NCBI RefSeq assembly: GCF_003334355.1
Contig: NZ_QOWP01000010.1
DNA: 64,000 bases
Direction: 5' to 3' (one strand)
From: Escherichia coli
Lineage (GTDB): Bacteria; Pseudomonadota; Gammaproteobacteria; Enterobacterales; Enterobacteriaceae
In this document: piece by piece, positions 10,961 through 57,481 of the stretch
Position numbering within the stretch: position 1 is the first letter of the stretch
How the letters are laid out: every line of letters starts with the position of its first letter
Position numbers and translations under genes: made by a program
The notes under the pieces: model-generated
What the model saw: only the letters and a program-made list of their open reading frames with translations
What the model was told of the DNA's origin: nothing
Database searches by the model: none

Positions 10961-10996
10961 GTAGGCCTGATGCGGCGCATTAGCATCGCATCAGGC
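10961..10996. repeat. REP (repetitive extragenic palindromic) element between appX and appA
   Basis: gtaggcctgatgcggcgcattagcatcgcatcaggc, imperfect palindrome with the GCCTGATGCG / CGCATCAGGC REP signature. Confidence 0.5.
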
Positions 10997-48940: not shown

Positions 48941-50449
<1,509 letters not shown>

Positions 50450-53011: not shown

Positions 53012-54283
53012 ATGCAGTATAAAGATGAAAACGGCGTGAATGAACCGTCACGCCGACGTTTACTGAAAGTGATAGGTGCACTGGCGCTGGCGGGAAGTTG
53101 TCCGGTCGCTCATGCACAAAAAACGCAAAGTGCGCCGGGTACGCTTTCACCGGATGCTCGCAATGAGAAACAGCCGTTTTATGGTGAGCATCAGGCAGGG
53201 ATCCTGACGCCACAACAGGCCGCAATGATGCTGGTGGCGTTTGATGTGCTTGCCAGCGATAAAGCCGATCTTGAGCGGTTGTTTCGCTTGTTGACTCAGC
53301 GTTTTGCTTTTCTGACTCAGGGCGGAGCAGCACCAGAAACGCCAAATCCGCGCCTGCCACCACTCGATTCCGGCATTCTTGGCGGCTACATTGCGCCCGA
53401 TAATCTCACCATCACGTTATCGGTGGGTCACTCATTGTTTGATGAGCGCTTTGGCCTTGCGCCACAGATGCCAAAAAAGCTGCAGAAGATGACGCGTTTC
53501 CCCAACGACTCGCTGGATGCGGCGTTATGTCATGGTGATGTGTTGCTACAGATTTGCGCCAACACCCAGGACACGGTTATCCATGCGCTGCGCGATATCA
53601 TCAAACACACGCCGGATTTGCTCAGTGTGCGCTGGAAGCGGGAAGGGTTTATTTCCGATCACGCGGCGCGTAGTAAAGGCAAAGAGACGCCGATTAATTT
53701 GCTGGGTTTCAAAGACGGCACTGCCAATCCCGATAGCCAGAATGATAAGTTGATGCAAAAAGTGGTGTGGGTAACGGCAGATCAGCAGGAGCCTGCGTGG
53801 ACAATCGGTGGCAGCTATCAGGCAGTACGCTTGATTCAGTTTCGAGTGGAATTTTGGGACAGAACGCCGCTGAAAGAACAGCAGACGATTTTTGGCCGTG
53901 ATAAGCAAACCGGTGCGCCGCTGGGAATGCAGCATGAGCATGATGTGCCTGATTACGCCAGCGACCCGGAAGGGAAGGTGATCGCGCTGGACAGCCATAT
54001 CCGGCTGGCGAATCCCCGCACGGCGGAGAGTGAGTCCAGCCTGATGCTGCGTCGTGGCTACAGTTATTCACTGGGCGTCACCAACTCCGGGCAACTGGAT
54101 ATGGGGTTGCTGTTTGTCTGCTACCAACACGATCTGGAAAAAGGCTTCCTGACAGTACAAAAAAGGCTCAATGGCGAAGCGCTGGAGGAATACGTTAAAC
54201 CTATCGGCGGCGGTTATTTTTTTGCGCTGCCGGGGGTGAAGGACGCGAACGATTATTTTGGAAGCGCGTTATTGCGGGTTTAA
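53012..54283 (+). CDS. efeB: Dyp-type haem peroxidase / deferrochelatase EfeB (Tat signal RRRLLK), 423 aa
   Basis: Full [39 protein letters not shown]... Confidence 0.93.
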
Positions 54284-54290
54284 TGTTTTT

Positions 54291-54427
54291 AGGCGGATAA
54301 GGCATTTGTGCGCAGATGCCTGATGCGACGCTTGCGCGTCTTATCATGCCTACAATCAGTGCGGGTTTGGTAGGCTGGATAAGGCGTTCACGCCGCATCC
54401 GGCGATCGTGCACTGATGCCTGATGCA
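54291..54427. repeat. BIME cluster (REP palindromes) between efeB and phoH
   Basis: aggcggataaggcatttgtgcgcagatgcctgatgcgacgcttgcgcgtcttatcatgcctac; gtaggctggataaggcgttcacgccgcatccggc. Confidence 0.5.
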
Positions 54428-54460
54428 AATCCTGCTGAAAGCACACAGCTTTTTTCATCA

Positions 54461-54479
54461 CTGTCATCACTCTGTCATC
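54461..54479 (+). promoter_or_regulatory. Pho box (PhoB binding site) of the phoH promoter
   Basis: CTGTCAT-CACT-CTGTCAT: two 7-bp direct repeats with 4-bp spacer, about 150 bp upstream of phoH ATG. Confidence 0.6.
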
Positions 54480-54627
54480 TTTCCAGTAGAAACTAATGTC
54501 ACTGAAATGGTGTTTTATAGTTAAATATAAGTAAATATATTGTTGCAATAAATGCGAGATCTGTTGTACTTATTAAGTAGCAGCGGAAGTTCCCGGCAGT
54601 GATAGTCAGTCACTATGGAGATCGCGG

Positions 54628-55692
54628 ATGGTAACGTCCTGTACTGGACATGTTTTAGATAATCAACGCGCCACCACTCGCGGAGTTTTCTCCTCCGGTA
54701 GTCATCTCGTCACTTTGCATTTTCAACCTCATCCTTTCTTTTCATGTGTTACCGACGCCGTAAACGGTGCGCGTAGCCGTTTTTCGGCATTTTATCCAAA
54801 AGCAAACTATGGCTTACAAGGAAGCCAACCCTCTGATGTTCGTGCGCATAATCGCGCTGCCAACGGCGCGTGTGATGAATACAAACAACTCAAGGTGCTC
54901 TCCATGGGAAGACAAAAAGCAGTGATCAAAGCTCGTCGCGAGGCAAAACGTGTGCTGAGACGGGATTCGCGCAGCCATAAGCAGCGTGAAGAAGAATCGG
55001 TCACCTCGCTTGTGCAGATGGGCGGCGTAGAAGCCATTGGTATGGCCCGCGACAGTCGCGATACTTCGCCCATCCTCGCGCGAAATGAAGCGCAATTGCA
55101 CTATCTGAAGGCTATTGAGAGTAAGCAGCTGATATTCGCCACGGGCGAAGCCGGGTGCGGAAAAACCTGGATCAGCGCAGCAAAAGCGGCAGAGGCCCTG
55201 ATACATAAGGATGTCGACAGGATTATCGTCACCCGTCCAGTTCTGCAAGCCGATGAAGATCTTGGCTTCTTACCTGGAGATATCGCAGAAAAGTTTGCTC
55301 CCTATTTTCGCCCGGTCTACGACGTGCTGGTCCGGCGCTTAGGGGCTTCCTTTATGCAGTACTGCCTGCGACCGGAAATAGGGAAGGTGGAAATTGCGCC
55401 GTTCGCCTATATGCGTGGACGTACCTTTGAAAATGCAGTCGTCATTCTTGACGAGGCGCAGAATGTGACTGCCGCGCAAATGAAAATGTTTTTAACCCGC
55501 CTCGGGGAGAACGTGACGGTTATCGTCAACGGTGATATCACGCAATGCGATTTGCCTCGCGGCGTGTGCTCCGGATTAAGTGACGCGCTGGAACGTTTCG
55601 AAGAAGATGAAATGGTTGGGATCGTCCGGTTCGGTAAAGAGGACTGCGTACGTTCGGCACTTTGCCAACGTACGCTGCATGCCTACAGTTAA
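54628..55692 (+). CDS. phoH: phosphate-starvation-inducible ATPase PhoH (Walker A GEAGCGKT), 354 aa
   Basis: Full ORF MVTSCTGHVLDNQRATTRGVFSSGSHLVTLHF... Confidence 0.9.
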   Translation: MVTSCTGHVLDNQRATTRGVFSSGSHLVTLHFQPHPFFSCVTDAVNGARSRFSAFYPKANYGLQGSQPSDVRAHNRAANGACDEYKQLKVLSMGRQKAVIKARREAKRVLRRDSRSHKQREEESVTSLVQMGGVEAIGMARDSRDTSPILARNEAQLHYLKAIESKQLIFATGEAGCGKTWISAAKAAEALIHKDVDRIIVTRPVLQADEDLGFLPGDIAEKFAPYFRPVYDVLVRRLGASFMQYCLRPEIGKVEIAPFAYMRGRTFENAVVILDEAQNVTAAQMKMFLTRLGENVTVIVNGDITQCDLPRGVCSGLSDALERFEEDEMVGIVRFGKEDCVRSALCQRTLHAYS

Positions 55693-56156: not shown

Positions 56157-57481
56157 TTAACCTCTCAGAATCCCGCGATCGGGACTTACCCAACGGGTGC
56201 GTTGCTTTTTAGGCATCAACATGACTCGTGTAAATGATACCAATGTCGTTGCCAGGCTCAGCATCCAGAAAATAACCGGGAACCAAATAATCCAGAAAAG
56301 CGATGAAGTCAGATTATGCTCATAGCGATTCTCGATCATCAGGCTGACAATAAATTGCAGTAAACATAACGTACACAATAATATTCCGGCAGTATGTGTC
56401 GCAGCGATATGTGTCAATTCAATATTTAACGGTACACCGGCAAGTTGGACTGCGTAAATAATGAAACCGACCAGGCAGGTGAAGGCCCATATTGTCGTCA
56501 GGCAGTATTCAAAAAACAGCGGCCACATTCGAAAGTTTTCTTTGCGCCACAACCTTGTCATATTTTTGAGGAATACTTCTGCACCGCCCTGAGCCCAGCG
56601 CAGGCGCTGTTTCCACAGCCCTTTTAACGTTTCAGGCATTAATATCCAGCACAGTGCCCGTGGCTCGTAAAAATCGTCCACTGATTCAACTGCAGCTTCC
56701 AGCTAATATCAATATCTTCGGTGATCATATCGTCACTCCAGTAACCCACTTCTGCCAGGGCGCTGCGACGAAATGCGGCAATAACACCGGAAACGGTAAA
56801 TACGTTTCCATAGATACGCTGGGTTCGCTTGATCAAACCAATAATTGAGGAATACTCGCCAACCTGAATTTTACCCACCAGGGTAGAACGTGTTCGAATA
56901 CGAGGATTACCGGTTACGGCACCCACACGCGGGTTGTACAACATCGGTTCCACAATATATGCCGCCGCATCGCGGTCTAATAACGCATCGCCATCAATGC
57001 ACACCAGATATTCACTTTTCGCCGCGGCAGCTCCGGTTTTAAGCGCAATGGCTTTCCCCTGGTTTTGCGCCAGATGAATGACCCGCAAATGGGGAATTTG
57101 TGCAGCCATGCGATCCAGGATGGCACGGGTTTTATCTGTTGAACCGTCATTTACGGCAATAACTTCAATGTTCTCATAACGCTGTGCTAAAGCGGCGTGT
57201 ATGGTTTCCTCAACGTTTTTCTCCTCATTAAAACAGGGAATGATAATGGAGATAGACGGATTATCTTTCAACTGGGGAGCTGGTGCGTTTTCTCCCCACG
57301 GCCAGTGGCGTTCACGATAGACCCAGAAATAGACGCCGCCAACAATCCACATAATGGACATAAAAAACGGCCAGAAGAAAACGAACCTCATCATCAGTTC
57401 ACCAGAGTGAAAGTACGCTACGCATAGGGGTATGCATAACACCAGACATAATATAAAAAACGATACGATGCGATTAATCAT
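56157..57481 (-). pseudogene. pgaC: poly-beta-1,6-N-acetylglucosamine synthase PgaC (GT2), reading frame split by a 1-nt loss in a homopolymer (plus-strand A5 at 56669-56673): frameshifted allele or sequencing error
   Basis: Track gives two ORFs in different frames: 56639..57481 (N-terminal 280 aa ...[13 protein letters not shown] then out of frame) and 56157..56681 (C-terminal, ..[32 protein letters not shown]); the intact protein reads ...[13 protein letters not shown]... Confidence 0.8.

Follow-up and report, generated by a model that had tools for sequence, protein, structure and literature searches.

In the well-described pho promoters of Escherichia coli, such as those of pstS and phoA, PhoB usually replaces the -35 element, with the Pho box lying about 10 bp upstream of the -10 element, and the classical consensus of the box has an A/T-rich 4-nt spacer. 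The Pho box has been defined as two 7-nt direct repeats which, with 4 nt each, form two 11-nt units, the four spacer positions being described as non-conserved or less conserved in a 2015 review (PMC4415409). Direct repeats phased at 11 bp also make up the ArcA operator arrays (Park et al. 2013), which are likewise bound by a response regulator of the OmpR family and are found in the same promoter region as the Pho box of phoH; these arrays differ from that box in their GTTA-type repeat, in mediating repression and in having a footprint that leaves out the Pho box. The phoH gene has long been counted in the Pho regulon and is listed as a PhoB target in RegulonDB; its Pho box is already known and the present finding adds nothing on that point. 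Here the phoH locus was compared with these systems in a 64 kb window, a term used for the whole stretch of 64,000 nt of E. coli DNA that was analyzed. In common with the pstS and phoA promoters, the phoH upstream region has two CTGTCAT-type heptads in an 11-bp register, with a candidate -10 element ten bp downstream that would put the box in the place of the -35 element. Binding by PhoB in vivo and positive regulation are likewise shared (PMC10294691). The heptads of phoH and pstS (TGTCATAAAACTGTCATA in the table of Fitzgerald et al. 2023) are equally perfect. The locus differs from pstS and phoA in its CACT spacer, which is not A/T-rich, in having a single box where pstS has several, in the modest induction of its total RNA (2.8-fold versus hundreds-fold for pstS and phoA; PMC10294691) and in the presence of ArcA-P sites overlapping the predicted transcribed start of the upstream promoter P1.

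All 5,426 complete E. coli genomes in the search had a match to the region from 54200 to 54950, with a coverage of 80% or more in 5,177 of them. Over 4.5 kb, three substitutions and a single 1-nt deletion separate the window from K-12 MG1655, and the efeB-phoH spacer was identical to that of MG1655. The gene order is efeO, efeB and phoH, followed by pgaD and pgaC on the opposite strand. Window coordinates are converted into those of NC_000913.3 by adding 1,030,364 and into those of U00096.2 by adding 1,029,587, as checked on the phoH start and on published sequences. A 1-nt deletion relative to MG1655 in an A-run at 56669 splits pgaC (- strand) into two ORFs, at 56639-57481 and 56157-56681; the strain may have a genuine pseudogene by frameshift here, or the deletion may be a sequencing error in the homopolymer. 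The features of the locus are listed in Table 1.

Table 1. Features of the efeB-phoH region, in window coordinates.
Feature	Position	Strand	Basis or remark
efeB, last gene of efeUOB	53012-54283	+	ORF list, MG1655 and PGAP annotation; stop codon bounds the spacer
BIME, alternating REP palindromes	about 54288-54427	.	Inverted and direct repeats, REP consensus match
Degenerate REP copy	about 54288-54327	-	Repeat analysis
Z-type REP	54318-54353	+	1 mismatch to the REP consensus used
Y-type REP	54370-54403	-	Repeat analysis
Truncated REP head	about 54408-54427	+	Repeat analysis
Pho box, two CTGTCAT heptads and CACT spacer (CTGTCATCACTCTGTCAT)	54461-54478	+	
Pho box as two 11-bp units	54461-54482		
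Predicted P1 -10, GAAACT	54489-54494	+	10 bp past the box; spacing rule, conserved GAnACT
ArcA-P binding region, direct-repeat array	54496-54549	+	Sequence in Table S4 of Park et al. 2013
P2 -35-like element, TTGCAA	54543-54548	+	Inferred hexamer
P2 extended -10-like element, TGTACTTAT	54565-54573	+	Inferred hexamer
P2 start site	54579	+	U00096.2 position 1084166 in two independent genome-wide start-site data sets
GGAG Shine-Dalgarno and upstream ATG (54628)	54617-54630	+	Near-invariant across genera
phoH as annotated in K-12, 354 codons	54628-55692	+	ORF list, MG1655 annotation
Conserved leader hairpin	54847-54877	+	RNAalifold and pair counts; 27-57 nt before the core ATG

The two heptads of the phoH box agree with the CTGTCAT consensus at all 14 of 14 positions. 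The box was the sole match to the pattern CTGTCATNNNNCTGTCAT in the 64 kb window, even with two mismatches allowed, and an exact match (0 mismatches) arose in none of 100 dinucleotide-preserving shuffles of the window, bearing out the preliminary description of 7-bp direct repeats with a 4-bp spacer. That description had given the span as 54461-54479, of which the start stands, whereas the 18-mer ends one position earlier and the end originally given takes in the next C; position 54479 is the end of the 18-mer TGTCATCACTCTGTCATC in the register of the published ChIP-seq site (54462-54479). A PhoB weight matrix that left phoH out and was built from the 58 other sites listed by Fitzgerald et al. 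2023 (their Table 1) scored the phoH box at 18.7 bits, the maximum reached in 30 shuffles being 16.3 bits. This was the second-best matrix score in the window, behind the agp site. The latter, AGTCATATTTCTGTCACA at 35166-35183 upstream of agp, was itself in the training set and is the window's other PhoB ChIP-seq site, with a published peak at 1065537 (Fitzgerald 2023, PMC10294691). A further matrix match at 61347-61364 (15.4 bits) was set aside, being within the shuffle range and missing from the ChIP-seq list. A third heptad-like sequence, TTTTCAT at 54452-54458, lies 9 bp rather than 11 bp from the first repeat and varies among E. coli strains, and was left out of the box. The phoH sequence conforms fully to the published definition of the Pho box (PMC4415409), with a CACT spacer that departs from the A/T-rich spacer of the classical consensus; since the spacer positions are the less conserved ones (PMC4415409), CACT does not exclude the sequence from this class.

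Published data tie this sequence to PhoB. The centre of a PhoB ChIP-seq peak at position 1084845 of NC_000913.3 corresponds to window position 54481, and the peak was assigned to phoH with the 18-mer given above as its site (Fitzgerald et al. 2023, PMC10294691). In low phosphate, phoH RNA was significantly reduced from 37,076 in the wild type to 13,375 in a phoB deletion, i.e. 2.8-fold, and sigma-70 occupancy at phoH was more than 2-fold lower in the deletion (Fitzgerald 2023, PMC10294691). In a pst mutant, phoH was induced 5.95-fold. With a published peak on the site and PhoB-dependent phoH RNA, the original reading of the repeat as the Pho box of phoH is supported, and it can be said that a reading of the raw sequence recovered a real regulatory site at single-base accuracy. 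The direct repeat is very probably the Pho box of an upstream, PhoB-dependent promoter of phoH, P1. Counting against this are the total phoH RNA, only 2.8-fold dependent on PhoB, the weakness of the predicted -10 element and the CACT spacer.

The box and the next 26 nt were invariant in eight diverse E. coli strains (91-100% identity), in which the BIME showed substitutions and indels. The analysis was extended to one genome per species, giving 80 phoH loci from Escherichia, Citrobacter, Salmonella, Enterobacter, Klebsiella, Kosakonia, Buttiauxella and other genera, with a PhoH core of 92-99% identity and efeB lying upstream of phoH in 73 of the 80 Enterobacteriaceae loci. Across the genera, a PhoB-type direct repeat, typically CTGTTATATTTCTGTAATAT, aligned with the E. 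coli box and was followed 10 nt later by GAnACT. Of 77 loci, 65 had a matrix match of at least 10 bits at 405-465 nt ahead of the core ATG (median 13.6 bits), as compared with 6 of 693 control windows (median -2.1 bits). In line with this, the phoH site has been described in print as conserved, less widely than those of pstS or phoA. One of the loci, on contig CACSKA010000011.1 titled Chryseobacterium sp. 18061, showed an enterobacterial efeB-phoH arrangement with a PhoH 95% identical to that of E. coli, and the assembly is probably mislabelled or contaminated. Two Escherichia loci had an altered box about 440 nt before the core ATG: only one CTGTCAT heptad was present in Escherichia albertii (locus L014), as if an 11-bp unit had been lost, and the first heptad was degenerate in Escherichia sp. 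MOD1-EC7003 (locus L010). Judged from these box sequences, PhoB control of phoH may have been weakened or lost in the two lineages.

Because the box adjoins a plastic BIME, and because the single heptad of E. albertii looks like the outcome of an 11-bp slippage loss, it might be proposed that the repeat is a functionless product of chance or of slippage duplication by the repeat-rich region. This has next to no probability, being already refuted by ChIP-seq and conservation: exact matches were absent from the shuffles, the repeat stays the same in E. coli strains that differ in the BIME, its position is conserved in genera without a BIME and its binding in vivo is published.

The repeats that fill the efeB-phoH spacer show the features of the BIME/REP elements of E. 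coli, i.e. imperfect palindromes of some 35 bp that alternate in orientation, an extragenic position after the last gene of an operon, copies dispersed in the genome and a unit number that varies between strains; judged from the consensus, this BIME is probably BIME-2-like, with alternating Y and Z2 units. Its orientations are -, +, - and then a partial +, with a direct periodicity of 100 bp. Across the 5,426 E. coli genomes, a 751-bp query over the spacer had matches at 50,091 places, with a median of 8 in each genome, showing that part of the query is a dispersed repeat; a 37-nt match elsewhere is one example of such a dispersed copy. The REP-derived Rfam family naRNA4 matched at the BIME with scores short of the gathering threshold (E-values 3.5e-5 and 1e-4). 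Amplification of this BIME in E. coli TW11681 (positions 170-860 of locus L008) has given some six tandem copies of the 100-bp unit, compared with about one and a half in the window, with an unchanged Pho box boundary. Elsewhere in the window, another REP-like palindrome was observed at 10961-10996 (- strand), with 3 mismatches to the consensus pattern used.

REP palindromes had been described at 54291-54427, with the PhoB site directly beside them, and both statements hold for the BIME as delimited here (Table 1), which ends 33 bp before the box; the 33 bp (54428-54460) that part the last REP-derived bases from the box are a non-repeat stretch. Such proximity to an activator site sets this BIME apart from typical ones. 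Outside Escherichia, the spacer between the efeB stop and the box was mostly 55-110 bp and almost never contained REP words (two loci with one or two), whereas in Escherichia species it was 178-400 bp with 4-9 REP words. Nothing in these comparisons suggests that the BIME contributes to PhoB control, since genera without a BIME keep the box. On this comparison of spacers, the BIME is an Escherichia-lineage insertion upstream of an older promoter that is independent of it.

Start-site data for the region identify P2 as the dominant + strand start under phosphate-replete conditions, 101 nt downstream of the end of the box. The P2 start was supported by 221 reads in Kim D. et al. 2012, where the leader up to the annotated ATG measures 49 nt, and by a Cappable-seq score of 248. 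At this distance, the box is too far from P2 for the mode in which PhoB replaces the -35 element, which argues for the separate upstream promoter P1. The hexamer GAAACT exactly 10 bp after the box, conserved as GAnACT with the same spacing across genera, is the predicted -10 element, and from the spacing rule of pho promoters P1 is predicted to start near 54501 (about 54499-54503). Both P1 and P2 of phoH were reportedly mapped with S1 nuclease by Kim et al. in 1993, who are also said to have obtained a DNase footprint of PhoB. Two phoH promoters are given by Park et al. 2013, citing Kim 1993, with P2 treated as the second. In phosphate-replete Cappable-seq data, no start was found between 1083344 and 1084120 and thus none near 54501, as expected if P1 depends on PhoB and is silent without induction. 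The 36% of phoH RNA that remains in the phoB deletion fits a constitutive P2, and the modest induction of phoH would follow from the presence of this strong constitutive promoter 78 nt downstream of the predicted P1 start. The predicted P1 -10 element was not called by a sigma-70 consensus scan. The only call of that scan, TTTATA-16-TATATT (54514-54541), which is also the sequence-based promoter guess of Shimada 2014, was rejected, since such calls were no more frequent than in shuffles and it fits neither P1 nor P2.

It could alternatively be held that there is no separate P1 and that PhoB at the box acts on P2 as a distant activator, repressor or roadblock, as the start-site data show P2 only. 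However, the cultures behind these data were phosphate-replete, a condition in which no activity of P1 is expected. Measured from its centre, the box lies about 109 nt upstream of P2, a geometry that is not known for PhoB. Together with the two promoters cited by Park et al. 2013, the conserved GAnACT exactly 10 bp past the box and the positive direction of the regulation, this makes action of PhoB on P2 from a distance very unlikely.

The ArcA-P footprint has been reported at -80 to -21 relative to “phoH P2” (Park et al. 2013), a position that agrees with P2 at 54579. The ArcA-P binding region listed in Table 1 extends from about -83 to about -30 relative to P2, a span that includes the predicted P1 start, and the core of the array, with its GTTA-type repeats, was conserved across genera. 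Deletion of arcA led to a 25-fold derepression (Park et al. 2013), which would be explained by ArcA-P covering the first ~50 nt transcribed from P1 together with the -35 side of P2; anaerobic repression thus probably acts on both phoH promoters. With ArcA-P binding directly downstream and 11-bp phased direct repeats being common to the sites of OmpR-family proteins, the repeat might also be thought to be the site of another response regulator of this family, with only incidental binding of PhoB. This is extremely improbable, as the heptads follow the PhoB consensus and not the GTTA type of ArcA, the ArcA footprint starts past the box, and PhoB ChIP-seq and RNA-seq of the phoB deletion tie the site directly to PhoB.

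In the mechanism proposed for phoH, phosphate limitation would lead two phosphorylated PhoB molecules to bind the two 11-bp units head to tail. From the place of the -35 element, PhoB would then recruit sigma-70 RNA polymerase to the weak predicted -10 element GAAACT, and transcription from P1 would start near 54501. Basal expression of phoH would come from the PhoB-independent P2 (54579), and anaerobic repression would be exerted by ArcA-P bound between and over both promoters. The BIME upstream, presumably a repeat inserted at the efeUOB 3' end in Escherichia only, would form no part of the promoter.

The start of phoH itself differs between annotations. The conserved PhoH core, as called by the NCBI pipeline in other strains and as delimited by the cross-genus comparison, begins at the ATG at 54904 and comprises 262 codons. 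Of the K-12 protein, residues 101-353 fall under the NCBIfam PhoH equivalog and residues 149-353 under Pfam PhoH, and the first 92 codons of the 354-codon phoH of K-12 are not part of the conserved PhoH. Of seven further E. coli strains sampled, four had the reading frame from 54628 out of frame with the core. From the end of the box, the distance is 149 nt to the K-12 ATG at 54628 and 425 nt to the core ATG at 54904, the latter being 443 nt from the start of the box. The placement of the box “about 150 bp upstream” of the phoH ATG in the preliminary description is therefore accurate for the K-12 annotation and does not hold for the conserved start. The K-12 start of phoH, and with it any “distance to the ATG”, is thus not the conserved start, a by-product concerning annotation that is the more useful outcome. 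In Ribo-RET work, phoH was listed as having a conserved internal initiation site in frame.

Upstream of the core, in 75 of 75 loci, the ORF from the ATG at 54628 ran through 84 codons or more without a stop, the other two frames having 1-11 stops each. It ended in one of three ways: by in-frame fusion to the core, giving 353-356 aa as in K-12; at a stop 22 nt past the core ATG, giving 97-99 codons, in Citrobacter, Salmonella and many E. coli; or at a stop 23 nt before the core ATG, giving 84 codons, in Pseudescherichia and Kluyvera. Across genera, two blocks of the leader shared high identity with E. coli (79-84% for 54583-54651 and 84% for 54807-54903), and the third codon positions of the PhoH core were 57% identical to E. 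coli in the non-Escherichia loci. Measured against the third positions of the core, the two blocks are under constraint at the nucleotide level and the middle of the leader is not. Taken more widely, as 54583-54700, the first block forms with the second the leader region that holds the hairpin and the stems below. The hairpin in the second block (Table 1) consists of an inner stem, 54853-54858 pairing with 54865-54870, and an outer stem of CAT with ATG. The inner stem covaries, with four of its six pairs changing on both sides and 97.5% of cells paired, values reached in none of 500 shuffles, and insertions in the hairpin loop were multiples of three. Further stems with constant arms and variable loops were found at 54638-54651, 54676-54696 and 54811-54826. 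Beyond the sub-threshold matches to REP-derived naRNA4, an Rfam search of 54200-55000 gave no known RNA family, and the literature covered by the search had no relevant description of a phoH leader or uORF.

These features raise the tentative possibility that the stretch of about 400 nt from P1 to 54904 is a conserved, translated and structured regulatory leader, and not a mere N-terminal extension or a passive 5' UTR; a regulatory role of the leader is possible and unproven. If this is true, the synthesis of the PhoH core would be set by the passage of ribosomes over the leader, through coupling or re-initiation, or else by a factor that binds the hairpins, and the 354-aa protein of K-12 would be one state of a toggling leader ORF. 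The long conserved leader of phoH may deserve a study of its own.
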